Origin: an uncultured Actinomycetota bacterium
GTDB taxonomy: Bacteria; Actinomycetota; Humimicrobiia; Humimicrobiales; Humimicrobiaceae
Assembly (NCBI GenBank): GCA_964556165.1
Contig: CAZKVH010000002.1
Span: forward strand, 32,616 to 96,615
Reading direction: 5' to 3'
Length of the DNA stretch: 64,000 bases
Under the pieces are notes generated by a model. It was not told the DNA's origin. It did no database searches and saw only the letters and a list, made by a program, of their open reading frames with translations. Below, piece after piece: positions 2,365-44,649 of the stretch. The translations under genes and the position numbers were made by a program. Every line of letters starts with the position of its first letter. Position 1 is the first letter of the stretch.

Positions 2365-2367
2365 TTG

Positions 2368-8600: not shown

Positions 8601-8803
8601 TGCTTTTTTATTTAAAAGACGGAGTAAAAAAATCAGTTACTCTTGAAACTGGTGAGATAGATCATTTAAAGAGATCTATTGCTGGAGAAATAAGTAATAT
8701 TCAGGACAATAATTTTAGAGCTAATTATAATAAAAGCTGTAAAAAAACCTGCAGCTATTTTGATTTTTGTTCGGATATGATTGATCAAAAAAAGATTAAA
8801 TGA
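5639..8803 (+). CDS. addA: ATP-dependent helicase/nuclease subunit A-like (AddA-type UvrD/PcrA-family helicase with a C-terminal RecB nuclease)
   Basis: 1054 aa. Walker A is ACAGSGKTT, with helicase motif Ia TFTRNAAENM, motif II VDEFQDTN, motif III GDDDQGIYSFRGA, and a later motif GCSRAKSMLIL. The C-terminal nuclease motif is GRFDRVDF...IRIIDYKLS. It overlaps the addB-like stop by 17 nt. Confidence 0.8.
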   Translation: MVREIKETKQQLNIINSSADIKRIIACAGSGKTTVLVNNIIKVLNDGSCSPDKILALTFTRNAAENMRVRIRESITGDNDLEGINIFTFNSFGNEIISEHSFEFGIGKDFKIISDSQSWQILYEIFNQSDLKHLKAGKRVGEFVQGLLKYIESLKNNLISVDEFEDYLINYEKILSGYKSEALRNEEERLIESQRELFDIYRKYERRKIESNCIDYPDQVFMPYFLLMNSKSIKARYQNRYKYIFVDEFQDTNIAQSYLLSMLYSPDFNKLVVVGDDDQGIYSFRGASIENILNFHNFREFRNHRVYDFFLTTNFRSGSNIISIINSVISSNNKRFKKELKPQNKRKKSEVVFYYNKTHDDEAAKIAEIIKYLVTRGIKLKQMAILARRKRFKKIIRELEVNDIKYELIGGKNFFYEPEVLFIISWLRVIADINDEISVVYILKSGKYKVCDRDIFFIKRNYRNLKEKVNIVDGITYYKKNPYISRETKKRLSGFLSSLRLYISKSGELELKELISLIIEDSGIVNELKSSFGTSSRRKIKNIENIIRIASDFQKSYVECNLAAFITFLKDVAKTDYDDPEVTEFSGENSVKIMSIHAAKGLEFEVVFMPALWKNDYAGRNSNKGFIIPAELRKDNSLYKEKKNFNSSRSFSGALKDTKIEEERRVFYVGCSRAKSMLILSSSEYEDAPSSANDDARPKEIVPFFDDVVNNNNLKIVNKKGLDFIKVRYGEKLYNNYNSYKSYRNVLSFVNTDRKSKIKVNVISEGEWRALQKKLSNDVLKAGPNLKESSRIKEIINRINSGLIYSVKKEGNSVDIGFFPLTWIIDYKKCPLLYRLKHVYSIPEKLNKELAGGEEIHSYLKNIVSTGFKNRILEEEVMSQFADKEVTGYLKNFFESGLWNFSGIDSVMLEQLFYWRINDNYIVGRFDRVDFKKNNKIRIIDYKLSSYSRSKDSNNRTGPKNLAVFQMKAYMAALSEIYGRPVSDIAGLLFYLKDGVKKSVTLETGEIDHLKRSIAGEISNIQDNNFRANYNKSCKKTCSYFDFCSDMIDQKKIK

Positions 8804-10382: not shown

Positions 10383-11843
10383 TTAATTTCTTTTAATAAC
10401 ACCCCCACCTAAAAGTACGTCACCACGATAGAATACTGCGGACTGTCCCGGAGTTATTGCTTTCTGTGGTTTGTCAAAAAATATACTGGCCGTTTTTTTG
10501 CCTGTGATTCTTATTTCGGATGGAGATTCGCTACTTTTGTATCTTATTTTAACCATTGCTCTGAAGTTATTATCTGGCGGGGATTCGGCAATAAAATTTA
10601 ATTTTTTAACTTTAAGTGATTTTTGCATCAAATCTTTTTCCTCGCCTGCTATTATTATGTTTTTATCCGGTAATATTTCTTTTACATAATGAGGTTTATC
10701 GTGACTTATGCCAAGTCCTTTTCTCTGGCCAATTGTATAGAAGAAGTATCCTTTATGGGTCCCAATAATGTTGCCTTCAGTATCAAGTATCTGACCATGC
10801 CTGATATTTTTCAGTCTGGATTTAATGAATGAGTGATAGCTATCATCAGGTATAAAACAGATGTCCTGGCTTTCATTTTTTTCTTCGATGAAAGGGAAAT
10901 CTTTCATAGATTCTTTTTTTATATCTTTTTTTGAGAATTCCCCCAGAGGGGTTTTTATACGGGATAATTGTTTCTGATCGAGTTTCCATAACATATAACT
11001 CTGGTCTTTATTTTTATCGATGCCCTTCTTTAATTCATATAGTCCTGAATGTTCTGATTTTTCTATTCTGCAATAGTGTCCTGTAGCAAGGAAAGATGCG
11101 CCTAAAGTTTTAATTTTTTCAAGAAGAATCCCAAACTTTATATACTTATTGCATTCAACGCAGGGATTGGGAGTAAGTCCCTTTTTATAATCAAGGAAGA
11201 AAGGTTCGATTATTTTTTCTTTGAATGGCATGCTTAAATCAATTATTACGTGAGGAATATTTATTTTTAGTGCCACTTTTCTTGCGGTTTTAATATCTTT
11301 TTCGAAGTCTGATTTTTTATTCTTGTTAGTAAAATCCCCGGGAAGCAGTTTTAAAGTTACTCCTATTAATTCATAGCCCCTGTCCTTTAGGATTCTGGCA
11401 GCCATTGAACTGTCAATTCCTCCGCTCATGGCAATTGCAACTTTGTTATTGTTTTCTTTATAAATATTTGAGGTGAGAGGTTTTGAGATGTAATCTGTAA
11501 TAAGGTTGTTAAGAGCGTTTATAACAGTATCAAGTACATGTTTTTTTTCTGCAGGGAATTCTCCAAGGCAGTCCTCTATATCTTTTCCGGTTAAAAGTGT
11601 GCAGTCAAGTATATCTTTGTTTCTTACCATAGTAGTAATACAATCAGCTGCTGCAATTATGTAGCTGCAGCCTCCCGCCTTAAACTTTATATCATCTATT
11701 ATATTGCCGGATATTTTTGCAGTTAACTTTATATAAGTTAAATCACCTGCAGTAGATGGAATTCTGCATGTCCCCACGGCGTCGGAGGATATTATCTCCC
11801 CGGCGTTATAATTTTTTTCAGAATGTCTTTCGAAATTTTTCAT
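10383..11843 (-). CDS. mnmA: tRNA 2-thiouridine(34) synthase MnmA with an N-terminal NifU/IscU-like Fe-S scaffold domain (fusion)
   Basis: 486 aa. Roughly the first 120 aa resemble IscU/NifU (GTCRIPSTAGD ... KFKAGGCSYIIAAADC ... DC). The PP-loop SGGIDSS (AIAMSGGIDSSMAA) follows, then MnmA core motifs NPCVECN and DICFIPD. Confidence 0.85.
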   Translation of the reverse strand: MKNFERHSEKNYNAGEIISSDAVGTCRIPSTAGDLTYIKLTAKISGNIIDDIKFKAGGCSYIIAAADCITTMVRNKDILDCTLLTGKDIEDCLGEFPAEKKHVLDTVINALNNLITDYISKPLTSNIYKENNNKVAIAMSGGIDSSMAARILKDRGYELIGVTLKLLPGDFTNKNKKSDFEKDIKTARKVALKINIPHVIIDLSMPFKEKIIEPFFLDYKKGLTPNPCVECNKYIKFGILLEKIKTLGASFLATGHYCRIEKSEHSGLYELKKGIDKNKDQSYMLWKLDQKQLSRIKTPLGEFSKKDIKKESMKDFPFIEEKNESQDICFIPDDSYHSFIKSRLKNIRHGQILDTEGNIIGTHKGYFFYTIGQRKGLGISHDKPHYVKEILPDKNIIIAGEEKDLMQKSLKVKKLNFIAESPPDNNFRAMVKIRYKSSESPSEIRITGKKTASIFFDKPQKAITPGQSAVFYRGDVLLGGGVIKRN

Positions 11844-29726: not shown

Positions 29727-32700
29727 ATGAAAAAAGATAATTTTGTTCATTTGCATGTCCACAGCGAATATTCTCTGTTAGATGGTGCTTCAAGAATACC
29801 AAAGTTAATAGAAAAGGCCTGCAGTTTTAATATGCCTGCTGTAGCATTAACAGACCACGGAGTTATGTATGGTATTATTGATTTTTATCTTCAGGCAAAG
29901 AAGTCAGGAATAAAACCAATAATTGGGTGTGAGGTTTACCAGGCACCAAAAAGCAGGTGGCATAAGCATAAGGACAGAGATAAAAAAGAAGGGATTTCAT
30001 ATCACCTTACCCTCCTTGCTGAAAACAATCGCGGCTACCAAAACCTGATGAGATTGGTGAGCCTGGGATTTCTGGAGGGTTTTTACTATAAACCTCGCGT
30101 GGATAAAGAACTCCTTAGGGAATATGGGGAAGGTATCATTGCTCTTAGCGGATGTATTTCAGGTGAAATACCAAAGAATATTGCTGCAGGAAATATTGAA
30201 GCTACAAAAAGAATTATGGAGGAATATATTGATATATTCGGGAGGGATAGCTTTTTCTTAGAGTTGCAGGATTCTGGTATACCCGAACAAAAGAATATAA
30301 ACAGGGCTATAATGGAGCTGTCTTCTGAATATAAAATCCCCATGGTTGCTACTAATGACATCCATTATCTGGATAAGAGTGACAGTAAGGCACACGATGT
30401 TTTGCTCTGTATACAAACTGGCTCTACCATAAATGAGCCGGGGCGCATGAAATTTCCCACAGAAGAATATTACTTTAAAAGCTATGAGGAGATGAAGGAG
30501 CTCTTTAGTGGTTATCCCGGCGCCATTGAGAACACGCTGGAGATTGCAGACAGATGCAATGTTAATTTAAAGTTTGGCATGAATCTAATACCATCTTTTG
30601 ATGTTCCTGAGGGCTATACCCCTGATGTATATTTAAAGGAACTTTGTTACAGTAACGTTGAAAAAAGATATGGCAGCATCTCAGAATCGGTAGATGAGAG
30701 AATAAAAAGAGAACTTTCAGTTATAAATAAGATGGGTTTTTCAGAATACTTTTTAATAGTGTGGGATTTAGTTAATTTTGCAAAGAATAATAGCATAAGA
30801 GTTGGGCCAGGAAGGGGCTCTGCCGCAGGAAGCATCGTGGCATACCTTCTGGGTATAACAGACATAGAACCTTTAAAATATGACCTTCTTTTTGAAAGAT
30901 TTTTAAATGAGGAGAGAGGAAGTATGCCTGATATAGATATAGATTTCTGTTATGAAAAAAGGGATGAAGTTATAAATTATGTAACAAGGAAATATGGTGA
31001 AAAAAGAGTCGCTCAACTAATTACTTTCGGGACGATGGCTGCAAGACAGGCTATTAGAGATGCAGGAAGAGTTATGGAAGTCCCTTATGCAGATGTGGAC
31101 CGGATAGCTAAAATGGTTCCCATGGAGTTAAATGTGACTATAAAAGATTCATTGGAAATGGCTCCGGAGTTAAGGGAGATTTACGATAATAACGAAAAGA
31201 TAAGGGAAGTAATTGATACTGCAATTTCACTTGAGGGTATAACAAGGCAGGATTCGATACATGCTGCAGGAGTAGTGATATCTTCTGAGGAGCTTTGCAA
31301 ATATACGCCAATCCAGAAAGAGAATGAGGGTGATATCGTAACACAGTATAAGATGGAAGATATTCAGAAAATAGGGCTGCTAAAAATGGATTTTCTTGGA
31401 CTCAAAACACTTTCATTGATAGATAGAGCATTATTCTTAATAAAGAAAACGAAAGGTATAGAGATAGATAGCAATAGTATAAGTCTGGAGGATAAAAAGA
31501 CTTTTGGCATGTTAAGTGAAGGAGAATGTCTCGGGGTATTCCAGCTTGAAAGTTCAGGTATGAGGGAACTGATAATAAATTTAAAGCCTTCAAGATTCGA
31601 AGATTTAATTGCACTTCTGGCTCTTTACAGGCCGGGACCTCTACAGAGCGGGATGGTGAGTGATTTTGTTGAGAGCAGGAATGGAAGAAGGCAGATTAAT
31701 TACCTGCATCCTTCTCTGGAAAAAATTCTTAAAAGTACGTATGGAATTATATTGTACCAGGAGCAGGTTATGAGAATAGCCTCAGAGCTCGCCGGTTTCA
31801 GTATGTCAGAAGCAGATGTTTTAAGGGGAGCTATAAGTAAGAAAAAAAGAAACCTTCTGTCAAAACAAAAAAGCAAATTTATTGACGGAGCCAGAGAAAG
31901 GGGAGTTGACGGGAAAGTCTCTGAAAAAATATTCGAGCTGGTAAATCATTTTGCTGAGTATGGATTTAATAAATCCCATAGTACTGCTTATGCTATGATT
32001 TCGTACCAGACTGCCTATCTAAAAGCCAATTATCCTGTGGAGTTTATGGCAGCTCTTCTCAGCATAAGGATGGGTAGTCAGGAAAAAGTAGCACAGTATG
32101 TTAATGAGACCAGAAGAATGGGCATTAGTGTTCTTCCACCTGATATTAATGAAAGTTTTTCTGATTTCACTGTGGTCGGGGATTCAATAAGGTTTGGGCT
32201 TTCAGCAATTAAAAATGTGGGCACTAATGTGGTTGAATCGGTGGAGGAGGAGAGGAAAAAAAATGGAAAATTCAAAGATTTCAATGATTTCTGTGAGAGA
32301 GTAGATAATAGTGTTTTAAATAAAAAGACTATAGAGAGCCTCATAAAAAGCGGAACTTTTGATTCCCTGGGCTTAAGCAGAAAATATCTGCTGGAAAATT
32401 ACGAGAAAGTTATAGAAGAAGTAGTTAAAATCAGGAAAGATAGGAATATTGGTCAGTATTCATTATTTGAAACAAATAGCGCTGGAAGAAAAAGAACCTT
32501 AACAGAGGAGTCTAATTTACTTGAAGAAAAGTATAAAGAATTCTCAAGGAAGGAATTATTGAATTTTGAAAAAGAAATGCTGGGTCTTTATATCTCAGGC
32601 CACCCTTTATTTGAATATGGAAATACATTATCTAAATTAACTCCGGTAGAAGCACTGGGTAATCTGGAAGATAAAACAAACGTTTCTGTTGGAGGTATTA

Positions 32701-33212
32701 TTAACAGGATCAGGACTATATATACAAAAAAAGATCAGCAAATGTGTTTTCTGGAGCTTGAAGATTTTAATGATAATATAGAAGTAATCGTATTTCCGTC
32801 AGTTCTTGAAAGATTCAGGGAAATCATTGCTGAAGACAGAATTGTAAGGATTAAAGGTAAATTAGACAAAAAAGAGGATCAGATAAAAATTATAGCCAAT
32901 GATTTTGATGAATTGGGAAAGGACATAAAAGTTAGCAGGAACCAGGATGAGCTTATCGGCGACAAGAGCGATAAAATAGTTTTTACGGTTAAGGAATGTG
33001 AGATGGATGAAAATCTGGTAAATGAACTTTATGATATAATAAAAAAGTACCCCGGATATTATGAGGTAGAGTTTAAAATAACCGGTAAGAATGGAAAAGA
33101 CATTGAGAAAACATACAAACTTCCTTCGTCTTACAAAATAAAAATGGATAGCGAACTGGAGAATGACCTCAGGGAAGTTTTTGGAAATAAAATTATGTGG
33201 GACAGGTATTAA
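29727..33212 (+). CDS. dnaE: DNA polymerase III alpha subunit (DnaE type)
   Basis: 1161 aa. The N-terminal PHP domain reads HLHVHSEYSLLDG. The polymerase core, HhH and OB-fold regions are present. Confidence 0.9.
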   Translation: MKKDNFVHLHVHSEYSLLDGASRIPKLIEKACSFNMPAVALTDHGVMYGIIDFYLQAKKSGIKPIIGCEVYQAPKSRWHKHKDRDKKEGISYHLTLLAENNRGYQNLMRLVSLGFLEGFYYKPRVDKELLREYGEGIIALSGCISGEIPKNIAAGNIEATKRIMEEYIDIFGRDSFFLELQDSGIPEQKNINRAIMELSSEYKIPMVATNDIHYLDKSDSKAHDVLLCIQTGSTINEPGRMKFPTEEYYFKSYEEMKELFSGYPGAIENTLEIADRCNVNLKFGMNLIPSFDVPEGYTPDVYLKELCYSNVEKRYGSISESVDERIKRELSVINKMGFSEYFLIVWDLVNFAKNNSIRVGPGRGSAAGSIVAYLLGITDIEPLKYDLLFERFLNEERGSMPDIDIDFCYEKRDEVINYVTRKYGEKRVAQLITFGTMAARQAIRDAGRVMEVPYADVDRIAKMVPMELNVTIKDSLEMAPELREIYDNNEKIREVIDTAISLEGITRQDSIHAAGVVISSEELCKYTPIQKENEGDIVTQYKMEDIQKIGLLKMDFLGLKTLSLIDRALFLIKKTKGIEIDSNSISLEDKKTFGMLSEGECLGVFQLESSGMRELIINLKPSRFEDLIALLALYRPGPLQSGMVSDFVESRNGRRQINYLHPSLEKILKSTYGIILYQEQVMRIASELAGFSMSEADVLRGAISKKKRNLLSKQKSKFIDGARERGVDGKVSEKIFELVNHFAEYGFNKSHSTAYAMISYQTAYLKANYPVEFMAALLSIRMGSQEKVAQYVNETRRMGISVLPPDINESFSDFTVVGDSIRFGLSAIKNVGTNVVESVEEERKKNGKFKDFNDFCERVDNSVLNKKTIESLIKSGTFDSLGLSRKYLLENYEKVIEEVVKIRKDRNIGQYSLFETNSAGRKRTLTEESNLLEEKYKEFSRKELLNFEKEMLGLYISGHPLFEYGNTLSKLTPVEALGNLEDKTNVSVGGIINRIRTIYTKKDQQMCFLELEDFNDNIEVIVFPSVLERFREIIAEDRIVRIKGKLDKKEDQIKIIANDFDELGKDIKVSRNQDELIGDKSDKIVFTVKECEMDENLVNELYDIIKKYPGYYEVEFKITGKNGKDIEKTYKLPSSYKIKMDSELENDLREVFGNKIMWDRY

Positions 33213-33240: not shown

Positions 33241-34335
33241 GTGCATGATTTAAAGTTTGCAGTGCTGGGAGCAGGTCATGGCGGGAAAGCCGTTGCGGCA
33301 CATCTGGCAATAAAGGGCTTTACGGTTAATTTATATAACAGGACTTTCTCGAATATACAACCCATAAGAAAAATGAAGGGTATAGAGCTTGAAGGTGAAG
33401 TTAATGGTTTTGGTAAACTTAATATAGTAACAAACCATATAGAAGAAGCAATAAAGGGCGTGGATATAATTATGGTCGTTGTTCCAGCAGATGCCCATTA
33501 TTATATTGCCAAGATTTGCGCTCCTTACCTTACTGAAAAACAAATAGTAGTTTTAAATCCCGGGAGAACCTGTGGAGCACTTGAGTTTTTAAACGTAATC
33601 AGGAAAGAAGGGAACGACAGAGATGTTATTGTAGCTGAAGCCCAGACTTTTATATACGCAAGCAGAGGAATGGGACCGGCATCAGCTAAAATATTCAGAA
33701 TAAAACAGGCAATACCGGTAGCTGCTATACCTTCAAAAAAAACTGAATTTGTAATAAAAAAGCTAAATAATGCATTTACGGAATTTATTCCTGCTGCAAG
33801 CGCTATTGAGACCAGTTTTAATAACATGGGTGCAGTATTTCATCCTTCTATTACAATACTTAATTCAAGCAGAATTGAATCTACCATGGGGAATTTTCAA
33901 TTTTATATAGATGGGGTAACGCAAACTGTAGCGAGAATTTTAGAAGCAGTTGATAAAGAACGTGTAATTGTTGCAAGAAAACTGAGGTGTGCAAACACTT
34001 ATACTGCTATAGAATGGCTGTCAATGGCATATAATGTGGTGGAGGACAATTTATTTGATGCAATACATAGTAATCCCGGTTATGTAGGGATTATGGCTCC
34101 AAGAACTATAAATGTAAGATACATAACAGAGGATGTACCGATGAGCCTGGTTCCTATTTCAGAATTTGGCAGAGCCCTGGGAGTAAGGACGGAAGTTATT
34201 GATTCGCTTATAAATATAGCAGATGTTATATTTAAAAAAGATTTTAGAAAAATTGGAAGGAACCTATCGAGACTGCATCTTGAAGGTTTAAATCTCGAGC
34301 AGTTAAGAGGTGCTTTTATCAAGGGTCAGGTGTAG
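33241..34335 (+). CDS. NAD(P)-dependent opine-dehydrogenase-family protein (octopine/nopaline dehydrogenase-like)
   Basis: 364 aa. The N-terminal Rossmann motif is KFAVLGAGHGGKAVAAHLAIKGFTV. Conserved blocks IVVLNPGRTCGALEF and the helical C-terminal domain are typical of bacterial Octopine_DH-family enzymes. Confidence 0.5.
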   Translation: MHDLKFAVLGAGHGGKAVAAHLAIKGFTVNLYNRTFSNIQPIRKMKGIELEGEVNGFGKLNIVTNHIEEAIKGVDIIMVVVPADAHYYIAKICAPYLTEKQIVVLNPGRTCGALEFLNVIRKEGNDRDVIVAEAQTFIYASRGMGPASAKIFRIKQAIPVAAIPSKKTEFVIKKLNNAFTEFIPAASAIETSFNNMGAVFHPSITILNSSRIESTMGNFQFYIDGVTQTVARILEAVDKERVIVARKLRCANTYTAIEWLSMAYNVVEDNLFDAIHSNPGYVGIMAPRTINVRYITEDVPMSLVPISEFGRALGVRTEVIDSLINIADVIFKKDFRKIGRNLSRLHLEGLNLEQLRGAFIKGQV

Positions 34336-34344
34336 TTATTAATT

Positions 34345-35976
34345 ATGAAAAAGATACTCGGTGCATGCATTGGAAGTTGCGTACATATTGCAGGAATACT
34401 GAATTTTCTAAGCTTATCCAAAAAATATGGATATAAGACAGAATTTGCAGGTTCGGCCTGTTCGATTGACAGGCTAAAGGAAAATATAGAGAAATATAAA
34501 CCCGATATTGTTGCTGTCAGTTACCGACTGTCACCTGAAAGTGCTCTTCCTTTATTTAAGGAATTAAAAGAAAAGATAATAAAAGAGCTTAAAAGAAGTA
34601 AGATGGAGTTTATTCTGGGAGGGACAAAACCGGTTGCCGAGGTAGGGAAAAAACTGGGAATTTTTAGTGCTATTTTTACCGGAGAAGAAAGAATCGAGGA
34701 AATTGAGAGTTTTTTAACTAAAAAGAAAATCAAAAGGGGAAGCGAAATTCCCCCTCAGGATATTCTGGGGCGTGTTAATTACAAAAAACCTTTCCCGGTT
34801 ATAAGACATCATTATGGAAGGCCTTCTCTCGAAGAAACAAAAAAGGGTATAAGGAAAATTTCCTCAAGTGGGCTTCTTGATGTTATATCTATCGGGCCTG
34901 ACCAGAATACACAGGAATTTTTTTTCCACCCTGAGAAGATGGACAGAAATCAGGATGGTGCAGGAGGAGTACCTTTAAGGAGTGCAGAAGATTTTAAGAG
35001 TCTTTATTCTGCTTCAAGAACAGGAAATTACCCGCTGATGCGTTGCTACAGCGGGACGAATGATATTATAAAAATGGCAGAAATCCTTAAGGAGAGTATC
35101 AATAATGCATGGTGTGCAGTACCCCTGTGCTGGTACAATGAGCTTGATAACAGAAGCAGTAGAAATCTTAAAGATGCAATAGCTGAAAACCAATCGGTAA
35201 TGAGATGGCACGCAGAGAGAGATATTCCGGTAGAAGTTAATGAATCACATCACTGGAGTCTGAGGTATTCGCCTGATTCAGTTGCTGTAGCAGCAGCTTA
35301 TATTGCTGCATACAATGCCAGGATGATGGGGGTAAAGGTTTATATCTCACAGTATATGTTCAACACGCCACCCGAAACATCATTTACAATGGACCTTGCT
35401 AAAATGCTCGCTAAAGTAGAAATGATAGAGTCCATGCATGATAGCAATTTCCTTACATTAAGACAGACAAGGACGGGATTATTCAGCTATCCTACTGATT
35501 ATGATGAAAGCAAGGGCCAGCTTGCCTCTTCTACTTTATTGCAGATGCAGTTGAGTCCGCATATTCTGCATGTAGTTGCTTACTGTGAAGCGGACCATGC
35601 TGCAAGAGCAGAAGATATAATTGAAAGCATAAAAATCGCAAGAAAAGTTATATATAATTATCTTGATGGTTGTCCTGATATGAAATTAGATGGAGATGTT
35701 ATATCAAGGAAGGAAGAATTAAAATATGATGCCGGGTTGATTATAGAAAAAATAAAGAGTCTTGATAAAGACAGGAAGTTTGAGAACCCTTTAATTTCTC
35801 CGGAAATAATTGCAAAGTCAATAAAAGCGGGAATTCTTGATGCACCTCATCTTAAGGGAGTAAAAGCCGGAAAGGGTGAAGTAAGAACAGCTTTTATTGA
35901 TGGTAAAAACGTAATAGTTGACAGTTATGGTAAGCCTATAACAGAAGAAGAACGTCTTGATAAAATACCGGTATAA
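34345..35976 (+). CDS. Hypothetical 543-aa protein with an N-terminal Rossmann module resembling a cobalamin-binding domain (KILGACIGSCVHIAG...IVAVS...ILGGT) and a large C-terminal domain of unknown family
   Basis: It is separated by only 9 nt from the opine-DH-family gene. I cannot assign the C-terminal 400-aa region to a family by eye. There is no radical-SAM CxxxCxxC motif. Confidence 0.3.
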   Translation: MKKILGACIGSCVHIAGILNFLSLSKKYGYKTEFAGSACSIDRLKENIEKYKPDIVAVSYRLSPESALPLFKELKEKIIKELKRSKMEFILGGTKPVAEVGKKLGIFSAIFTGEERIEEIESFLTKKKIKRGSEIPPQDILGRVNYKKPFPVIRHHYGRPSLEETKKGIRKISSSGLLDVISIGPDQNTQEFFFHPEKMDRNQDGAGGVPLRSAEDFKSLYSASRTGNYPLMRCYSGTNDIIKMAEILKESINNAWCAVPLCWYNELDNRSSRNLKDAIAENQSVMRWHAERDIPVEVNESHHWSLRYSPDSVAVAAAYIAAYNARMMGVKVYISQYMFNTPPETSFTMDLAKMLAKVEMIESMHDSNFLTLRQTRTGLFSYPTDYDESKGQLASSTLLQMQLSPHILHVVAYCEADHAARAEDIIESIKIARKVIYNYLDGCPDMKLDGDVISRKEELKYDAGLIIEKIKSLDKDRKFENPLISPEIIAKSIKAGILDAPHLKGVKAGKGEVRTAFIDGKNVIVDSYGKPITEEERLDKIPV

Positions 35977-36096: not shown

Positions 36097-37377
36097 ATGT
36101 TTGATAATAAAAAAAGTAATAATATTATAAAACTTCCATTCGGGACGAGGGATATACTTCCTTCTGAAATAGATGAGAGAAATAAAATAAAGGAATTAAT
36201 TTCGAGAGAGTTCAGAATGTGGGGTTATGGGGAGGTAAACACTCCTGTATTTGAGTATACCAGAAATATATCGGTTGGTGCCGGTAAGAATTGGAAAGAT
36301 AAGCTGATTAATTTTTTTGATGTTGATGGAAATCCGGTATCCCTGAGAAGCGATATGACCATACCCATAGCCAGGCTTGCCGGGATGAGATTAAAGGAAA
36401 ATCAGCTACCATCGAGATTTTGTTATTTTGCAGACTCGTTCAGGCAATCCGGAACACAAAAAGGAGCAAGACGGATTTACAATCAGGCAGGTCTGGAGCT
36501 TATTGGATTCAAAAATAGCATTATAGCTGATGTGGAAGTACTTATAATATTAATAAATATTCTAAATGGATTAAACGTAAAGGATTATAAGATAGGTCTG
36601 GGGCATGTGGAATTTATTGAAGGATTATGCGACTGGTTTGAGCTTGATATAAAGGAGAGAGATTTTATCAGGAACAGAGTTATACTGAAGGACTTTGTTG
36701 AACTGGAAAATTTTTTAAATAAAAGAGACACAAAAAAAGCAAAAATTTTTATAAAATTACTTCAACCGGAAAGTAGTATTGATAAAATAAGTAATTTAAT
36801 CTCTGATATTGATAATAAAAAAGTTATTCAGAGTTTTAATTATATTAAAGAATTAAATAATATACTTACGGGGCTCAATAATAAGGATTATTTTATAACT
36901 GATTTTAGCATCGTAAGGGATTTTGATTATTATACAGGACTGTTATTCGAGGTTTACTGCCCTGCCTTAAATGATATCATAGGCAGTGGAGGAAGGTATG
37001 ACAAACTTATAAAAAAGTTTGGGAAGGATATACCCGCGACCGGGTTTGCTCTTGATATCGACCTTGCCCATAAAGCTATTGAGGTACTGCAAGGTAAAGA
37101 AGAACTTAAGATTTTACTGAAAACAGGGAATAATGCAGATATAGGGGATTCTATAAAACTGATTGAAATAGCACGGAAGTTGCATAAAATGGGTGTAATA
37201 GTTGAACTGCTCTATGAGGATAAGCCGGAGCTTGAAGTTTTTGCACTGGAAAAGAAATATAATATTATTGTTGAGGTCAAATCTAATTTTAAGGATCTGG
37301 AAGTACTGGATATAAAAAGTAATTCAAGAAAAGTAGAGAAAATAAATGACTTTATTGAAGGGTTAAAAAGGAGATAA
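36097..37377 (+). CDS. hisZ: ATP phosphoribosyltransferase regulatory subunit (HisRS paralog)
   Basis: 426 aa class-II aaRS-like protein (LPFGTRDILP ... GGRYDKL). It lies directly upstream of a short-form (216-aa) hisG, which requires HisZ. Confidence 0.7.
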   Translation: MFDNKKSNNIIKLPFGTRDILPSEIDERNKIKELISREFRMWGYGEVNTPVFEYTRNISVGAGKNWKDKLINFFDVDGNPVSLRSDMTIPIARLAGMRLKENQLPSRFCYFADSFRQSGTQKGARRIYNQAGLELIGFKNSIIADVEVLIILINILNGLNVKDYKIGLGHVEFIEGLCDWFELDIKERDFIRNRVILKDFVELENFLNKRDTKKAKIFIKLLQPESSIDKISNLISDIDNKKVIQSFNYIKELNNILTGLNNKDYFITDFSIVRDFDYYTGLLFEVYCPALNDIIGSGGRYDKLIKKFGKDIPATGFALDIDLAHKAIEVLQGKEELKILLKTGNNADIGDSIKLIEIARKLHKMGVIVELLYEDKPELEVFALEKKYNIIVEVKSNFKDLEVLDIKSNSRKVEKINDFIEGLKRR

Positions 37378-38028
37378 ATGGCAAAAGAAGCAATTAAAAT
37401 TGCTATCCCAAAGGGATATTTATTTGAACCATGCGTTGGAGTGCTGGAGAAAGCAGGCTATGACGTGTCTTTTTTGCTGGAAGATAACAGAAAACTATCA
37501 ATATATTCCAGCAGGGATTCCATAGTATATATTATATCGCGGCCCATGGATGTTCCTGTATATGTTGAACACGGAGCATGTGATTTAGGATTTTCAGGAA
37601 AAGATGCATTAATGGAGAAGGAAAGTAAGGTATATGAGCTGCTGGATTTAAAGAATGGTGAGTGCAGGATAATTCTGGCTACTCTAAAAAATGAGATAGA
37701 AAATGTTAAGAAGCACTACAGCCGTTTTGGAGTGGTAAAGGTTGCTACAAGTTATCCAAATATTGCCAGGAAATATTTTGATGAAAAAGGCATTCAGGCA
37801 GAGATTATAAAGCTACATGGCTCTGTAGAACTTGCTCCTGCGCTTGGAATTGCAGACGAGATACTTGACATTACATCAACAGGCAGAACTCTTGAAGATA
37901 ATAATCTGGTTGAGATGTCAGAGATTGCAGTATCCACCACCAGGGTTATTGCCAATGCTACAAGTTACAGAGTTAAATATGATTTAATAAATAATTTTAT
38001 AAATAAAATTAAGAGTGTTATAAAATGA
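37378..38028 (+). CDS. hisG: ATP phosphoribosyltransferase, short form
   Basis: 216 aa (IAIPKGYLFEP ... LDITSTGRTLEDNNL). It is start/stop coupled to hisZ. Confidence 0.85.
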   Translation: MAKEAIKIAIPKGYLFEPCVGVLEKAGYDVSFLLEDNRKLSIYSSRDSIVYIISRPMDVPVYVEHGACDLGFSGKDALMEKESKVYELLDLKNGECRIILATLKNEIENVKKHYSRFGVVKVATSYPNIARKYFDEKGIQAEIIKLHGSVELAPALGIADEILDITSTGRTLEDNNLVEMSEIAVSTTRVIANATSYRVKYDLINNFINKIKSVIK

Positions 38029-38624
38029 TAGAAGAAAAGATGAAAAGAAAAGCAAAAATATCAAGAAAAACTAAAGAAACAGATATAGAACTGGAATTTG
38101 AACTTGATGGAAGTGGTATCGCTGATATAAAAACTTCCATACCTTTTTTTGACCATATGCTGGACAGCTTTACAAGACATGGTAATTTCAATATGAATAT
38201 AAAGGCTTCCGGTGACATTGAGGTTGACTGTCACCACCTGGTAGAAGATGTGGGCATATGTCTGGGTAAAGCTATATTTGAATGTTTAAAGGATAAAAGC
38301 GGCATAAAAAGATTTGGATATATCTTACTTCCTATGGATGATGCAGAAGTGTCAGTGTCTATCGATATAGGAGGGAGAGCTTATCTGAGATATAATGTTG
38401 ATATAGAGTATGAAAAGATTAACGGTTTCGAGACCGCTGTAGTTGAAGATTTTTTCAGATCCCTTGTAAGTAATAGTTTTATTAACCTTCATATAAATAA
38501 AAATGCAGGTTCAAACTCCCACCATATTATAGAAGCGATTTTTAAAGCTTTCGGAATAGTTCTTTACGAGGCGAGTAGAAAAAGAGGAACAGATTCCGTA
38601 CCTTCAACTAAAGGTTTAATATAA
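38025..38624 (+). CDS. hisB: Imidazoleglycerol-phosphate dehydratase
   Basis: 199 aa. The motifs RKTKETDIEL and DCHHLVED are typical of IGPD. Confidence 0.85.
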   Translation: MIEEKMKRKAKISRKTKETDIELEFELDGSGIADIKTSIPFFDHMLDSFTRHGNFNMNIKASGDIEVDCHHLVEDVGICLGKAIFECLKDKSGIKRFGYILLPMDDAEVSVSIDIGGRAYLRYNVDIEYEKINGFETAVVEDFFRSLVSNSFINLHINKNAGSNSHHIIEAIFKAFGIVLYEASRKRGTDSVPSTKGLI

Positions 38625-38711
38625 AAACAGGATAATGACCTTGATTTAATGCGCTTATTGAAAATCAATAAAAAATGTTTGCATATCTACAGGTCGGGAA
38701 GAGAGTGAGCT

Positions 38712-39332
38712 TTGCATATAGCCATCATAAATTATTTTACAGGAAATATAAAAAGTGTTGAGAATGCTTTTAAAAAAGCAGGTGCCGCGGTGGAGGTAAC
38801 CAGCAGACCTGAAGATATTATAGATGCGTCAGCTATAGTTCTACCCGGTGTTGGAGCATTTGGAGATGCTTATAGAAATCTCAGTCAATTAAAGCTAATT
38901 GAAGTAATCAAAGAAAATGTAAAGAAAAAACCTCTTTTAGGGATATGTCTCGGAATGCAGTTACTTTTTGAATATAGTCTTGAAGATGGCAGGCATAATG
39001 GCCTGGGTTTATTGAAAGGCCACGTGGGGAAAATTCCTTCAGGTGTAAAGGTGCCACATACTGGATGGAACCAATTAAGAATTTTAAAAGACGATAATAA
39101 ATTGTTTTCTGGAATTAAAGAGGAAGAAAATTTTTATTTTGTTCATTCTTACTATGTTATACCTGAAGATAAGAGTATTATTACCTGTACTACTGATTAT
39201 GATATTCAGTTAACGGCAGGTGTAAAATACGGTAATATCTATGGGTTACAATTCCACCCGGAAAAAAGCAGTAACAGTGGATTAAGAATCCTTGAAAATT
39301 TCTGGAATATGTTACGGGAAAAAAATCAGTAG
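38712..39332 (+). CDS. hisH: Imidazole glycerol phosphate synthase glutaminase subunit
   Basis: 206 aa class-I GATase (LGICLGMQLL catalytic Cys, HPEKS His). It probably starts at TTG 38712, with a GGGAAGAGAG RBS. Confidence 0.8.
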   Translation: MHIAIINYFTGNIKSVENAFKKAGAAVEVTSRPEDIIDASAIVLPGVGAFGDAYRNLSQLKLIEVIKENVKKKPLLGICLGMQLLFEYSLEDGRHNGLGLLKGHVGKIPSGVKVPHTGWNQLRILKDDNKLFSGIKEEENFYFVHSYYVIPEDKSIITCTTDYDIQLTAGVKYGNIYGLQFHPEKSSNSGLRILENFWNMLREKNQ

Positions 39333-39412
39333 AGTTGCATAACTATATTGTTTTTGTAGAATTAATTTATAAACTATAAATTAAATTAATATAAAAAAGT
39401 AAGGGTAAGCCA

Positions 39413-40156
39413 ATGATAGTAATACCGGCAATAGATATAATAGATGGCGCCTGCGTGAGGCTTGTAAGAGGCAGATTTGATACCAGAAAGAAATATTCGG
39501 ATGACCCGGTCGAGGTAGCCAGGAGATGGAAAGAAGATGGGGCGACCTGGTTGCATATAGTAGACCTTGATGGGGCCCGTACAGGAGAATTGAAAAATCT
39601 GGGAATTGTACATGAAATAAAAAAGAAAATAGATATTAAGATACAATATGGCGGTGGTGTGCGTAATATGGGCCTGGTTGGCACTGTTTTAAATAAAGGT
39701 GCAGACAGGGTTATAATCGGAACAAGAGCTATAGAAGATATAAGCTTTCTGAGAGAAAGTTTTCTAAAATATAAGGATAGAGTCATTGTTAGTCTTGATT
39801 ATGGAAAAGATGGAATTATTTTTATAAATGGCTGGCAAAGTCAATCTAAAGCAAATATATTCAAGATTATAGAAAGGCTCGATGCCCTGGGGATGAAACA
39901 GGCAATTCTGACTGATATATCGAGAGATGGAACTCTTGAAGGAGCCAATCTCGATTTTCTAAAGAGAATTTTAGAAAGTTCAGGTTTGGAATTTATATTT
40001 GCCGGTGGTATAGGAAGCTTAAATGATATTATTAATATTAAAGAAATTGAAAATATGGGAATTATCGGTGTAATAGTAGGCAAAGCTCTGTATGAAAAAG
40101 AAACCGGCGTCAATCTTAAAAAGGCAATAAAGATAGGTAGGGGAAATGATAACTAA
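39413..40156 (+). CDS. hisA: ProFAR isomerase
   Basis: 247 aa TIM barrel with N-terminus [20 protein letters not shown]. Confidence 0.85.
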
Positions 40157-40904
40157 AAGAATTATCCCGTGTCTTGATGTTGACAGGGGAAGAGTCGTAA
40201 AAGGAGTACATTTTGTAAATATAAGAGATGCAGGGGACCCTGTAGAGCTGGCAGCTTTTTATGATAAAGAAGGAGCTGACGAGATAGTATTTCTTGATAT
40301 AACTGCATCTCATGAGAATAGAAGTACAGTTATTGAACTTGCAAGCAAAGCTGCGGAGAAAGTATTTGTACCATATACTATAGGCGGTGGTATAAGAAGT
40401 ATAGAGCATATAAGGGAAATATTAAAGAAAGGCGCGGATAAGATTTCCATAAATACTGCTGCATTTAATAACCCTTCTTTAATTTCAGAGGCTTCAAAGA
40501 TATTTGGCAGCCAGTGTATAGTTGTTGCAATTGACGCAAAATATAGAAGCAAGGACTTCTGGGAAGTATATTTAAATGGAGGAAGGACTCCTGCAGGAGT
40601 GGATGCTGTAGAGTGGGCAAAAAAGGTGGAAGAGCTAGGCGCAGGAGAAATACTGTTGACCAGTATGGACAGGGATGGAACAAAGGACGGATACGATATT
40701 GACCTTACGCGTGCTGTTACTTCAGGTGTTAATATACCGGTCATAGCTTCGGGTGGTGCCGGGAAACTGGAGCACCTGAGAGATGTAATTAAATATGCAG
40801 ATGCCGATGCGGTGCTGGTTGCTTCCATTTTTCACTATGGCCAGCATAGCATAAAAGAAGCCAAACAGTATCTGAAGTCCGAGGGAATAAATGTTAGAAT
40901 ATAA
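40146..40904 (+). CDS. hisF: Imidazole glycerol phosphate synthase cyclase subunit
   Basis: 252 aa with N-terminus [19 protein letters not shown]. It overlaps the hisA stop. Confidence 0.85.
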
Positions 40905-40996
40905 CCTGAAATTAAAAAATTAATAAGTTGAATGAGAAATTAATTTAGCAGAATATCTAAACTCATAACAGACTGAAAGGTTGGTATATTACAAAA

Positions 40997-41656
40997 ATGA
41001 ATAAGAAAATAAAAGACGCTAAAGTAAATAAAGTCGGTCTGATTCCTGCAGTTATACAGGATTATATATCAGGTGATGTTCTAATGCTTGCTTATATGAG
41101 CAAGGAGTCTATAAAGAAAAGCATTGAAACAGGAACAACCTGGTTCTGGAGCAGGTCAAGGAAGAAGCTGTGGAACAAGGGTGAGACATCCGGGAACATA
41201 CAGAAGATAAAAAATATCAGGTATGACTGTTATGGGAACGCATTGCTTATAAGTGTCGAGCAGATTGGCAATGCCTGTCATACTGGCAATAGAAGCTGTT
41301 TCTATAGAAATCTTAAAGATGTTGAAAAAGACCTTGATTTCGAGAGATATTTTAAGGAAGTAAAAGAAGAGAGCATGCTGGATGAATTATACCATATAGT
41401 CAATGAAAGGATAAAAGACAAAGCAGCTGATTCTTACACTTATTATCTGCATAAAAAGGGTCTGGATGAGATAATAAAAAAATTTGGTGAGGAGAGCATC
41501 GAAGTGATTCTATCAGCAAAACATCAGAAAAAAAAAGATTCGATAAATGAAATAGCTGATATGCTCTATCATATGATTGTACTGATGGTTGAAAAGAAGA
41601 TTACTCTTGAAGAGGTTTTTGGGGAATTAAAAAAAAGGAGACAGGAGAAAGGGTAA
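40997..41656 (+). CDS. hisI: Bifunctional phosphoribosyl-AMP cyclohydrolase / phosphoribosyl-ATP pyrophosphatase
   Basis: 219 aa. The N-terminal HisI domain carries a Cys motif ([10 protein letters not shown]), and a C-terminal HisE-like helical domain follows. Confidence 0.8.
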
Positions 41657-42628: not shown

Positions 42629-42717
42629 TGGTGCCGAAGGTCGGGGTCGAACCGACACGAACCTCGCGGTTCACTGGATTTTGAGTCCAGCGCGTCTGCC
42701 AATTCCGCCACTCCGGC
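42629..42717 (-). tRNA. tRNA-Leu (anticodon CAA), type-2 tRNA with a long variable arm
   Basis: On the minus strand the acceptor is GCCGGAG/CTTCGGC, and the D-arm matches the tRNA-Leu consensus TGGCGGAATTGGCAGACGC. The anticodon stem is CTGGA/TCCAG with loop CTCAAAA. The variable arm is GAACC-GCGA-GGTTC, the T-arm GTCGG-TTCGACC-CCGAC, followed by the discriminator and CCA. Confidence 0.9.
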
Positions 42718-43106: not shown

Positions 43107-44649
43107 ATGAACATATTTGTATATATTGCTATCTTGGCTTCTACACTCTCAATCACTTTCATTATTATCAGCCTTTATCAGAAACCGTTCATGGAAGCAA
43201 CAGGTCCATTTATTATTTTATCTGGTCTGGTATTATTAAATTCTATATTTTTTATTGCCACGCTTACAAGAAGCAGTATGCAGGCAGCTCTAAGATGGGC
43301 ATATTTCCAGGAGCTAACAACACTTATATTTCCGCTGTTGTTTTTTAACTTTATGAATTTTTTTTTAGGCAACAGGCTATCAAAAACAAGGCTAATATAT
43401 AAGCTTATATTTCTAATAATTCCACTTGGTATTTTCATATACCTTGTTGCAAACAGGAGTATCGAAGTCAGGAAATATTATTTTGGGTATATTTCTTATT
43501 ATTCCGAGCAGGTTTTGATAGGGGTCTTTTATCTTGTCCCAATTTATTTATTAATAAATACTGCTATTTCTTACAGGATCTATAGAAATCAAAGGGAAAA
43601 GAAGTCCAATGGAACCAATATTTTAATGTTAGCTGTATTCCTGGTATTTTTATTGATGAATGTTGCATACAGGCCTCTTACAATGTCAGGTGTTATGGAA
43701 GTGGCTCCTATAAGTGTTATTTTAAATCTTTTTTTATTCTTATTTATAACTATTGCATTGCTAAATTCCAGGTTTAATATTCAGAATTTAGCATTTAAGA
43801 GAATATTTGAAAATGTTGGCGATTGTATAATGGTTACAGATTATGAGGGTAAAATAACACAGCTTAACAGGTGTTTATTTGAGAGAATGTTTTCCAGAAA
43901 AGATATTATATATTCCGTTGACAGGGATAAAATCATAAAAGAACACCTTTTATCTTTTTCAAGGAATAAGAAGGATTTTAAATTTTTTCTGAAAACCCTC
44001 GAGAGCAAATCTTTTAATGATTTCAGGAAAGATTTACATTTTGAGGTAGACGGCTCTGAGAAAATCTTTGATGTAATCATATATCCTATTTATGACAGCA
44101 GGGGTAAATTGGCTGGGAAGTCAACTATATTTAGAGATGTTACTGAAAGCAGATTTTACGAGAAAGAGCTTAGAAATCAATCATTGATTGATTATCTTAC
44201 AGGAGCTTACAACACGAGATATATTTTTGAGAGACTTAAAGAGGAAATAAAAAGATACGATAGATATAAAGAACCATTTTGTGCTGCTTACGGATATAGA
44301 TAATTTTAAAAAATATAATGACACTTTGGGTCATCTCGAGGGAGACAAGTTATTGAAGGATGTTGTTGGTCTGTTTAAAGATAATATAAGAGAGCGCATA
44401 GATGTAGTCGGCAGATACGGCGGAGATGAGTTTATAATTATATTATCAAGAATAAAGCTTGATAAAGCAAAGGATATGGGTGAAAGAATATTAAGTATGT
44501 TAAGTAAAAAAGAAATTAAGATTATTTCTCTTAGTATGGGTATTTATGAATACAATGGAGAATCTGACATAGATGAATTATTAAAAAAGGCTGACAGCCT
44601 GATGTACAAAGCTAAGAAGTCAGGGGGTAACAGGCTCGCCTGCAGTTAA
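43107..44649 (+). pseudogene. Membrane sensor (multi-TM N-terminal domain, PAS and GGDEF) diguanylate cyclase gene interrupted by a +1 frameshift in a T4 run at 44277-44280
   Basis: ORF 43107-44303 ends ...RYKEPFCAAYGYR*. ORF 44281-44649 continues (V)LLTDIDNFKKYNDTLGHLEGD...GRYGGDEFIIIL. Deleting one T restores EPF-VLLTDIDNFK, which matches the GGDEF-domain consensus exactly. This is either a true pseudogene or an indel error in the sequence. Confidence 0.6.

Follow-up and report, generated by a model that had tools for sequence, protein, structure and literature searches.

A conserved gene pair of bacteria and archaea joins an opine dehydrogenase family enzyme to a predicted B12-dependent, glutamate-mutase-like protein

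Introduction

To our knowledge only about a dozen AdoCbl-dependent isomerase reactions have been described, and new ones are rare. The described system that offers the closest structural match to the second protein of the pair reported here is glutamate mutase (GlmS/GlmE, EC 5.4.99.1; PDB 1cb7, 1ccw, 6h9e). It consists of two subunits, carries the Asp of the DxHxxG lower-ligand motif as well as an arginine claw, and is encoded together with methylaspartase and mutL. The two adjacent genes that we describe, A and B, depart from this arrangement: B appears to join S and E, in that order, in one chain, has a Cys where the Asp would stand, leaves the claw unmatched at the positions of a weak alignment and has neither of the accompanying genes nearby, being paired instead with an opine dehydrogenase.

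The known B12 aminomutases act before NAD(P)-dependent dehydrogenases, Ord and Kdd. OraSE, with 2,4-diaminopentanoate dehydrogenase, and KamDE, with 3,5-diaminohexanoate dehydrogenase, have a PLP lysine for which B lacks a conserved equivalent, and OraS- or KamD-type partner subunits that are missing from the A-B pair; A also comes from a different dehydrogenase family. In the pyrrolysine pathway PylB acts as an amino-acid carbon-skeleton mutase, PylC as a Ddl-like ATP-grasp ligase and PylD as an NAD-dependent dehydrogenase, and the surroundings of A and B may be analogous in bringing together activities of these three kinds. However, PylB is a radical-SAM rather than a B12 enzyme, PylD lies outside the opine dehydrogenase family, and there is no pylS or pylT context at A-B.

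On the dehydrogenase side, N-(1-D-carboxyethyl)-L-norvaline dehydrogenase (CENDH; Arthrobacter sp. 1C, ODH_ARTSC) aligns with A over its full length, shares its Rossmann and helical domains and keeps the same His, Arg and Asp. In contrast to A, the CENDH-type genes of Arthrobacter, Fictibacillus and NC10 adjoin DcuC or TRAP transporters and regulators, without a B12 enzyme. We considered and rejected a pairing of CENDH with a B-like gene, since none lies beside the CENDH-type loci, and the substrate profile of CENDH is therefore not transferable to A. CntM, which we take to belong to the same broad opine dehydrogenase family, works in Cnt systems that have CntL, CntK and transporter genes and contain no counterpart to the putative B12 mutase B.

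Results

The gene pair and its conservation

Genes A and B lie in a window of 64,000 nucleotides, the whole stretch of DNA that was analyzed, with dnaE (29727..33212) on one side and hisZ (36097..37377) on the other. These positions, together with the ORF coordinates in Table 1, bear out the initial annotation of two genes 9 nt apart between dnaE and the his operon. A GGGGG ribosome-binding site precedes the GTG start of A by 7 nt, and B follows in the same reading frame. The database search returned more than 5900 relatives, the top 120 of them full-length and 60-100% identical, so we regard A and B as real genes rather than chance ORFs. A promoter and terminator scan between dnaE, A, B and hisZ gave nothing convincing, and an Rfam search around the pair found neither a cobalamin riboswitch nor any other regulatory RNA. 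The 64-kb window contains no adenosyltransferase, reactivase or cobalamin riboswitch, and neither mutL (glmL) nor methylaspartate ammonia-lyase was found there, among the recurrent neighbor clusters or among the neighbors scanned. In Humimicrobiia the pair sits amid housekeeping and biosynthetic genes.

Table 1. Position and basis of assignment of the features of the A-B locus
Feature	Position	Strand	Basis
Gene A, opine dehydrogenase family oxidoreductase, predicted NAD(P)H-dependent	33241..34335	+	364 aa, GTG start
Dinucleotide-binding motif G10-A-G12-H-G-G15 of A (GxGxxG)	33268..33285	+	G10, G12 and G15 invariant in 49 A homologues
His201 codon of A, equivalent to CENDH His202	33841..33843	+	1bg6 alignment; invariant in 49/49 homologues
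R293-Y-I-T-E-D298 of A, equivalent to CENDH Arg292...Asp297	34117..34134	+	Alignment to 1bg6 and 3c7a (Pecten octopine dehydrogenase)
A/B spacer, 9 nt	34336..34344	+	ORF coordinates
Gene B, predicted B12-binding domain and GlmE-like TIM barrel in a single chain	34345..35976	+	543 aa, ATG start
Predicted B12-binding Rossmann-like domain of B (residues 3-119)	34351..34701	+	PF02310, 32.1 bits, equal to the gathering score
C12-V-H14-I-A-G17 of B, Cys variant of the DxHxxG lower-ligand motif	34378..34395	+	Aligned to D-E-H-S-V-G of OraE
Modeled GlmE-like TIM barrel with C-terminal helical/beta extension (B residues ~147-543)	34783..35973	+	

A and B are adjacent, and often overlap, in 76 of 80 species-level genomes. 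Across more than 80 loci the spacing mostly falls between -13 and +12 nt, with a 1-nt overlap in 20 loci, while the flanking genes vary from locus to locus. The 80 genomes represent some ten bacterial phyla and several lineages of archaea. The bacterial carriers belong to Actinomycetota, Bacillota, Thermotogota, Ignavibacteriota, Bacteroidota, Cloacimonadota, Aminicenantes and Poribacteria, and the archaeal ones to Asgard archaea, Bathyarchaeia and Methanomicrobia; most are anaerobic peptide or amino-acid fermenters (Caldanaerobacter, Thermoanaerobacter, Tissierellia, Tepidanaerobacter). The B family is present in at least 491 species-level genomes from two domains of life, and the pair itself stands together in hundreds of anaerobic bacteria and archaea. 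In a distant tier of relatives (31-37% identity) an Octopine_DH gene lies next to or near the mutase gene in four loci. When the identities of A and B were correlated in the manner of a mirror tree, the outcome was uninformative (r = 0.95 overall, 0.17 among distant loci).

That A and B are almost always adjacent, in bacteria and archaea alike, points to a function that is shared and distinct. A literature search on the pairing and the host class returned no relevant published work, and, misannotations aside, no database name for B is more specific than "cobalamin-dependent protein". These data support the conclusion that A and B are a conserved, uncharacterized functional pair. This agrees with the initial annotation, against which a pairing confined to this genome would have counted; the adjacency in 76 of 80 genomes shows that it is not so confined.

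Gene A belongs to the opine dehydrogenase family

Residues 185-329 of A match Pfam PF02317 (Octopine_DH) with an E-value of 4.8e-43 and 147.2 bits (cut-off 30), and Pfam also reports Rossmann-domain matches at the N-terminus. Against the PDB, residues 5-358 align with Arthrobacter CENDH (1bg6) at 1.3e-70. The His, Arg and Asp that are catalytic in the CENDH and OcDH structures (CENDH His202, Arg292 and Asp297) are kept in A, and R293, Y294, E297 and D298 are invariant in all 49 A homologues, which were drawn from cross-phylum loci. The assignment of A to the opine dehydrogenase family, already proposed from its Rossmann N-terminus and conserved blocks, is thus solid, and we predict that the enzyme is NAD(P)H-dependent.

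Gene B has a predicted B12-binding domain with an unusual ligand motif

The N-terminal domain of B finds its closest sequence matches in the B12 domains of OraE and KamE, and the corresponding domain of the Caldanaerobacter homologue (52% identical to B) reaches 51.7 bits against PF02310. The lower-ligand motif lies in the context G10-S-C12-V-H14-I-A-G17, in which Cys replaces the Asp of DxHxxG. C12, H14 and G17 do not vary among 53 homologues, and the CxHxxG form occurs in 87 of 95 loci. Four first-tier loci have D[IV]HVAG, and 17 of the 27 aligned distant-tier sequences have Asp at the Cys12 position, which favors taking the motif for a true lower-ligand loop. We propose that B binds a cobamide in the base-off/His-on mode with His14 as the predicted cobalt ligand. 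The initial annotation, which had described a B12-binding module without the canonical Asp, therefore stands in this respect. The PLP-binding lysine of the aminomutases (OraE Lys629) has no counterpart in B, in which Ser25, from a stretch that is not conserved, takes its place in the alignment.

The remainder of gene B is modeled as a GlmE-like barrel

The rest of B, a domain of roughly 420 residues, had earlier been called unplaceable. This holds for family models, as no Pfam or NCBIfam model covers residues 130-543, but not for structure, since the model of B has the TIM-barrel fold of GlmE. Searches of the PDB with the single sequence and with a 53-sequence profile returned matches to the B12 domain only, and the barrel fold is accordingly taken from the model. 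GlmE is the best structural match, at 16-17% identity. The B protein of the window matches neither PF06368 (Met_asp_mut_E) at E <= 1 nor any NCBIfam model of methylaspartate mutase. Among its relatives, P0130 scores 27.5 bits and the Caldanaerobacter homologue 24.9 bits against PF06368 (cut-off 26.6), and three distant relatives (P0154, P0156 and P0159) are fused to MutL (PF13941), which is annotated as glutamate mutase reactivase. The data also bear out the view that B is not a radical-SAM enzyme and does not resemble CntL.

The nearly invariant E415 of B aligns with GlmE Glu330, an adenosyl-ribose ligand. Comparison of the B family with the single GlmE sequence by hhalign gave a probability of 7.9%, and inclusion of the GlmE family alignment and the distant tier raised this to 45%, which is still weak. 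In this weak 45% alignment the arginine claw of GlmE (R66, R100 and R149) falls on H156, Q190 and Y235, the conserved R154 and R233 of B lie two residues upstream of claw-aligned positions, and GlmE Glu171 falls on L267/D268. An alignment at this level is too weak for active-site equivalences, and we draw no substrate claim from it; on these grounds glutamate itself is not established as the substrate. B thus combines, in a single chain, a GlmS-like cobalamin-binding domain with a GlmE-like TIM barrel that follows it, and we interpret it as a probably B12-dependent, glutamate-mutase-like protein.

Amide ligases are frequent third partners

A frequent third partner of the pair is an ATP-dependent amide ligase, of the Ddl-type ATP-grasp kind in 16 loci and AsnB-like in 8. 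The AsnB-like gene is directly 3' of B in seven of these loci, and in the eighth (L004) one gene further and on the opposite strand. In the five AsnB-like N-termini that were read, the nucleophilic Cys is replaced by Ala, Thr or Ser. The partner ATP-grasp of one locus has a faint PylC-like_N match, and in the relative P0130 B is fused to an ATP-grasp of the GSH-S/RimK type. No ligase gene adjoins A-B in the genome of the window. Distant members of the family lie within clusters for polysaccharide biosynthesis, alongside DegT aminotransferases and glycosyltransferases, and no transporter is consistently linked to the pair.

Discussion

We lean towards a model in which A and B form a two-enzyme cassette for radical rearrangement and reductive N-alkylation of a glutamate-like substrate. 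What we say of AdoCbl use, reaction order, substrate and product is inferred, and goes beyond the fold and family assignments, the conservation of catalytic and cofactor residues and the pairing that we observe. We envision a translationally coupled cassette in which B would use AdoCbl to start a radical 1,2-rearrangement of a carboxylate-bearing substrate of the amino-acid type, probably glutamate or an N-substituted glutamate. A would use NAD(P)H to couple an amino acid to a 2-oxo acid through a secondary amine, or NAD(P)+ to undo such a linkage. Both enzymes would share a metabolite and work on it in consecutive steps. We prefer the order in which mutase B comes first, although both this order and the anabolic direction are guesses; reductive condensation by A could then pull an otherwise unfavorable mutase equilibrium towards a branched opine-type amino acid. 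A ligase, either a Ddl-type ATP-grasp or AsnB-like, might in many genomes then link the product to an acceptor through an amide bond, and in some Bacteroidales this acceptor appears to be a cell-surface glycan.

A more tentative and wider proposal, which we hold to be possible but somewhat doubtful, is that A-B represents a new family of AdoCbl-dependent carbon-skeleton mutases, single-chain and with a ligand pair that is usually Cys-His instead of Asp-His, that is obligately coupled to an opine dehydrogenase and, in many lineages, to an amide ligase. Its product, a branched opine-type amino acid that has yet to be described, would be common to many anaerobic bacteria and archaea, those of Asgard included, and would decorate surface glycans in some lineages.

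The B family combines a clear fold assignment with an unusual Cys-for-Asp ligand motif, and its near-invariant dehydrogenase partner limits the range of reactions to consider. Several carriers are available in culture (Caldanaerobacter subterraneus, Thermoanaerobacter, Tepidanaerobacter, Lutispora and Tissierella), and with these features of A-B they make the question directly testable. The answer might bring to light a new B12 reaction and a new metabolite of the opine kind or modification of the envelope, and might show what bacterial opine dehydrogenases do physiologically; it would also correct the widespread misannotation of these proteins as "methionine synthase" or "methylmalonyl-CoA mutase cobalamin-binding subunit".

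The pair could alternatively serve anaerobic amino acid fermentation, with B rearranging an amino acid in the manner of OraSE and KamDE and A oxidizing the product to a 2-oxo acid that feeds a 2-oxoacid:ferredoxin oxidoreductase and substrate-level phosphorylation. The fermentative habit of most carriers fits such a scheme, as does the precedent of B12 aminomutases followed by Ord and Kdd. So do nine Tissierellia-type loci with an upstream same-strand run of genes that we read, without a family-library scan, as phosphotransbutyrylase, butyrate kinase and 2-oxoacid:ferredoxin oxidoreductase. However, about 540 nt separate the oxidoreductase genes from A and the synteny is limited to one lineage; because of this gap we regard the ptb-buk-oxidoreductase run as lineage-specific synteny and rejected its genes as pathway partners. 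The recurrent amide ligases consume ATP, distant members sit in polysaccharide biosynthesis clusters, and the Humimicrobiia pair lies among housekeeping and biosynthetic genes. Furthermore, A-B has no consistently linked transporter, and the catabolic-looking CENDH-type loci of aerobes, which do have DcuC or TRAP transporters and regulators, are without a mutase. We therefore consider the fermentative role unlikely. We give still less probability to B as a true glutamate mutase (EC 5.4.99.1) in fused form that produces 3-methylaspartate, with A unrelated or accessory. GlmE as best structural match, the PF06368 matches of relatives and glutamate-related neighbors in some loci speak for it, but the low identity to GlmE, the lack of PF06368 and methylaspartate mutase matches in window B and the claw that the weak alignment does not show at the expected positions speak against it, as do the absence of a methylaspartase-like gene among the recurrent clusters and neighbors scanned and the near-obligatory adjacency with A across two domains.

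Two other readings seem to us very improbable, and equally so. B might be a corrinoid (methylcobalamin) protein or methyltransferase with A as its redox partner, a reading to which its labels in databases, "methionine synthase" and "cobalamin-binding subunit", point and which the resemblance of its B12 domain to methyltransferase corrinoid proteins would allow; yet B has no pterin- or homocysteine-binding barrel and no MtaB/MttB-type partner domain. The other reading, for which the initial annotation had pointed to CntM as a member of the family, is that A-B serves the synthesis of an opine-type metallophore, much as CntM does for staphylopine and pseudopaline. In its favor are the presumed family link between A and CntM and the zinc-starvation-type genes next to one distant locus, L093 (cobW, ZnuA/ZinT, and paralogues of L33 and S14), although these genes are on the opposite strand. 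The link is not supported: homologues of CntL and CntK and metallophore transporters are missing beside the pair in the loci examined, no CntL, histidine racemase or exporter/importer occurs among the recurrent clusters and neighbors scanned, the window contains neither a nicotianamine-synthase-like CntL nor a dedicated exporter/importer, and the pair sits in core-genome contexts.

In favor of our cassette model, the ATP-grasp of the GSH-S/RimK type that is fused to B in P0130 hints at glutamate, and a few loci carry genes that do so too: a GltS symporter (L072), a putative gamma-glutamyltranspeptidase read from sequence without a family-library scan (L054 and L067) and PGA_cap (L089).

Genomic context and conservation of the gene pair

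Genes A (opine-dehydrogenase family) and B (a putative B12-dependent, glutamate-mutase-like protein) occupy the interval between dnaE and hisZ by themselves; 9 nt separate them, they share a reading frame, and no amide ligase gene adjoins them in the window. The ORFs found coincide exactly with those of the initial annotation. The 64 kb are a core-genome stretch of co-directional genes (ilvBN, serA, leuA, leuCD, cimA, dnaE, his, pfkA, polA, rpsA, uvrBAC and glycolysis genes) whose nearest relatives are uncultured Actinomycetota of the class Candidatus Humimicrobiia (Hydromicrobium/Humimicrobiaceae). No hisD, hisC or histidinol phosphatase gene was found within the window, and Rfam detected no cobalamin riboswitch there, the two tRNA genes being its sole matches.

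Features of the window (nucleotide positions)
Feature	Position	Strand	Remarks
tRNA gene	1979-2049	+	Rfam
Tandem helicase-nuclease genes	2365-8803		two proteins
NifU-like/MnmA fusion gene	10383-11843	-	486 aa
dnaE	29727..33212		upstream of A
Gene A	33241..34335	+	364 aa; GTG start, GGGGG in front
Gene B	34345..35976	+	543 aa
CxHxxG motif of B	34378-34395	+	C12-V-H14-I-A-G17
hisZ, G, B, H, A, F, IE, then pfkA	36097-41656		downstream of B
tRNA gene	42632-42717	-	Rfam
Membrane-like ORF and GGDEF ORF	43107-44649		398 and 122 aa

The B family is compact: of 1.84 billion cluster representatives searched exhaustively with HMMER, only 150 clusters passed E ≤ 1e-30 and 657 passed E ≤ 1e-3. When one genome was scanned for each GTDB species, a relative turned up in at least 491 genomes, and the pair was surveyed in the best 80 of these. 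They include Humimicrobiia, many Bacillota (Caldanaerobacter subterraneus, Thermoanaerobacter, Tepidanaerobacter, Fervidicola, Lutispora, Tissierella, Halanaerobiales and Thermaerobacter), Thermotogae, Ignavibacteria, Bacteroidales, Cloacimonadota, Aminicenantes and Poribacteria, as well as Thor-, Prometh- and Sifarchaeota, Bathyarchaeia and one Methanomicrobia MAG. In 76 of the 80 loci an A homologue (36–88% identity by tblastn) lies within 300 nt of B, so the pairing first noticed in a single genome extends across bacteria and archaea. Loss of A is established in none of the four exceptions: two are short contigs (L050, L059), one contig ends just after B (L031) and one locus is unresolved (L073). 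Gene A comes before B except in two loci, which both have Asp in the B12-binding motif; most spacings fall between −13 and +12 nt, and in 20 loci the genes overlap by 1 nt. Because the flanking genes differ completely between lineages, it is the pair itself that is the conserved unit.

The association reaches into a distant tier of mutase-like proteins (31–37% identity, ~600–630 aa), where a gene of the Octopine_DH family lies directly upstream in L093, L094 and L095 and three genes away in L089 and L090. The only distant-tier form examined without such a gene nearby is P0156 (L091/L092). This protein and P0154 (1226–1266 aa) combine a B-like mutase with a full MutL (PF13941) reactivase-like module, and the P0156 gene adjoins oligopeptide ABC ATPases and a peptidase C45/AAT-family gene.

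Gene A encodes a predicted opine dehydrogenase

The proposal that A belongs to the octopine/nopaline dehydrogenase family is borne out by a Pfam match to Octopine_DH (PF02317, 4.8e-43), accompanied by Rossmann-type N-terminal matches, and by its best solved relative, the Arthrobacter opine dehydrogenase CENDH (PDB 1bg6, 1.3e-70, residues 5–358). Scallop octopine dehydrogenase (OcDH) is a weaker match, and NCBIfam holds no specific model for A. Residues His201, Arg293 and Asp298 align with CENDH His202, Arg292 and Asp297, which we take to be catalytic from the CENDH and OcDH structures. These three residues and the dinucleotide-binding glycines G10, G12 and G15 are invariant in 49 homologues from loci across many phyla. 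Because of this invariance and the two family matches, A appears to be a catalytically intact opine-dehydrogenase-type enzyme.

Gene B encodes a GlmS-like/GlmE-like fusion

Residues 3–119 of B match the B12-binding family PF02310 at 32.1 bits, exactly the gathering score, and a Caldanaerobacter homologue (52% identical) scores 51.7 bits, in keeping with the earlier description of a B12-binding-like N-terminus that lacks the canonical Asp. By sequence this module is closest to the B12 domains of ornithine 4,5-aminomutase OraE and lysine 5,6-aminomutase beta, and its C-V-H-I-A-G motif aligns with D-E-H-S-V-G of OraE. All 53 homologues compared (61–83% identity) share G10, S11, C12, H14, A16 and G17, and CxHxxG occurs in 87 of 95 loci. 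Four loci among the closer relatives (Cloacimonadota, Bathyarchaeia, Sifarchaeum and Thermotogae) have D[IV]HVAG at this position, and 17 of 27 aligned distant-tier sequences have an Asp there (DPHTxG or DAHTLG). Because Asp is kept in these sequences, the motif appears to be a real lower-ligand loop, with Cys replacing Asp in one large subfamily. The PLP-binding Lys of OraE aligns with Ser25 of B in a non-conserved stretch, which argues against a PLP-dependent aminomutase.

The C-terminal 420 residues, which the initial annotation could not place, are not covered by Pfam, NCBIfam or PDB sequence searches. An AlphaFold2 model built on a 53-sequence alignment is confident (mean pLDDT 86.9, pTM 0.77), and Foldseek matches it to the glutamate mutase E subunit GlmE (6h9e_B and 1cb7_B, E 5.7e-16 and 1.3e-15). 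Sequence evidence agrees with this match. The relative P0130 (45% identical) reaches the Pfam model Met_asp_mut_E over 365 residues (27.5 bits vs a cut-off of 26.6), and the Caldanaerobacter homologue scores 24.9 bits; profile–profile alignment of the B and GlmE families spans 355 columns (E 2e-4); the distant relatives P0154, P0156 and P0159 are fused to MutL, a family annotated as glutamate mutase reactivase; and B E415, nearly invariant in both tiers, aligns with GlmE Glu330, a ligand of the adenosyl ribose. This structural and sequence evidence makes B a single-chain fusion of GlmS-like and GlmE-like modules and places it in the adenosylcobalamin (AdoCbl) isomerase superfamily.

Amide-forming partner genes

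Clustering of neighbors over 58 diverse loci identified two recurrent third genes, both for ATP-dependent amide-forming enzymes: a D-Ala-D-Ala-ligase-type ATP-grasp (PF07478; 16 loci; best PDB matches Ddl, 1e-33) and an AsnB-like protein (PF00733; E. coli AsnB, 4e-75; 8 loci, in seven directly after B and in L004 one gene further on the opposite strand). The five AsnB-like N-termini read (MAGIVG, MTGIAG, MSGIAG) have Ala, Thr or Ser for the nucleophilic Cys, and so these partners should lack glutaminase activity. In P0130, B is naturally fused to a GSH-S/RimK-type ATP-grasp, and ATP-grasp-like genes also adjoin the pair in L094 and L095. The distant-tier genes of Rikenellaceae and of another metagenomic contig are embedded in polysaccharide clusters (DegT aminotransferases, glycosyltransferases, flippases and PGA_cap). 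A few scattered neighbors are related to glutamate: a GltS Na+/glutamate symporter adjoins the pair in Lutispora, and a neighbor in L054 and L067 reads from its sequence alone as a gamma-glutamyltranspeptidase.

In several Bacillota, lipoprotein-maturation genes follow the pair directly or one gene on: apolipoprotein N-acyltransferase Lnt (Pfam) in the Halanaerobiales loci L057 and L079, and prolipoprotein diacylglyceryl transferase Lgt (a sequence reading only) in L033, L035, L039–L041, L044 and L083. This may be chance, or it may hint at a role in the envelope.

Proposed function

The best-supported reading is that A and B form a two-enzyme cassette that would act in turn on one metabolite. 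In the order we favor, B would rearrange the metabolite first as a GlmE-type B12 radical mutase, A would then condense the mutase product reductively, and in many lineages an ATP-dependent amide ligation would follow. Since glutamate mutase at equilibrium favors the unbranched substrate, the NAD(P)H-driven step of A would pull the mutase reaction. The reverse order is equally compatible with the data: opine formation would come before the mutase, whose target would be the N-substituted glutamate-like moiety of the opine. The many conserved arginines would even suit a tricarboxylate opine. Carbon-skeleton mutase, Ddl-like ligase and NAD-dependent dehydrogenase together recall PylB, PylC and PylD, by analogy only. 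The strongest rival to the cassette is a fermentative pathway with a catabolic mutase and dehydrogenase, which is weakened by the amide ligase partners, by the polysaccharide-cluster contexts and by the absence of consistently linked transporters.

Other readings are that B is a methyl-corrinoid protein, that the pair belongs to a Cnt-like metallophore pathway, or that B is an ordinary fused glutamate mutase. We do not accept the last, as B is 16–17% identical to GlmE; the window protein reaches no glutamate mutase model in Pfam or NCBIfam, and no methylaspartase or mutL gene was recognised in the window or among the recurrent or scanned neighbors. In a low-confidence alignment the GlmE arginine claw (R66, R100, R149) falls on B H156, Q190 and Y235, with the conserved R154 and R233 two residues before claw positions on the same strands. 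The B family has a strongly conserved core of its own, common to both tiers (R154, H156, D179, Q190, R233, Y235, W263, D268, R270, E297, N299, R307, D311, K353, R376, H409 and E415). This suggests that the family has kept a single reaction, whose substrate would bear several carboxylates and an amino group.

In public databases B goes under generic or wrong names ("cobalamin-dependent protein", "cobalamin B12-binding domain-containing protein", "methionine synthase", "methylmalonyl-CoA mutase cobalamin-binding subunit"), and no function is annotated for the Caldanaerobacter protein (WP_011025300 = AAM24180 = UniProt Q8RB98). Full-text literature, with incomplete journal coverage, yielded nothing linking an opine dehydrogenase with a B12 enzyme or describing the B family. 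B thus appears to represent an uncharacterised family of the AdoCbl isomerase superfamily with putative cobamide binding and a seemingly obligate dehydrogenase partner. The family is worth study because it occurs widely, has carriers in culture and can be tested directly.

Additional observations

Unlike A, the CENDH-type dehydrogenase genes of the aerobes Arthrobacter, NC10 and Fictibacillus (L096, L097, L099) have no B-like gene beside them and adjoin DcuC or TRAP transporters and regulators (GntR or LysR); the NC10 locus also carries an ornithine cyclodeaminase/mu-crystallin gene. They resemble loci for opine utilisation, which could explain the physiological role of CENDH.

Elsewhere in the window, a membrane-like ORF without a Pfam match overlaps by 23 nt an ORF whose GGDEF domain begins at profile position 36 of 161. 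This arrangement probably reflects a diguanylate cyclase gene that is split or frameshifted, or else an error in sequencing. Another gene fuses an N-terminal NifU-like scaffold domain to tRNA 2-thiouridylase MnmA domains. The tandem proteins of ~1050–1100 aa, each with UvrD-type helicase domains and a C-terminal PD-(D/E)XK nuclease, look like an AddAB/AdnAB-type end-resection pair.
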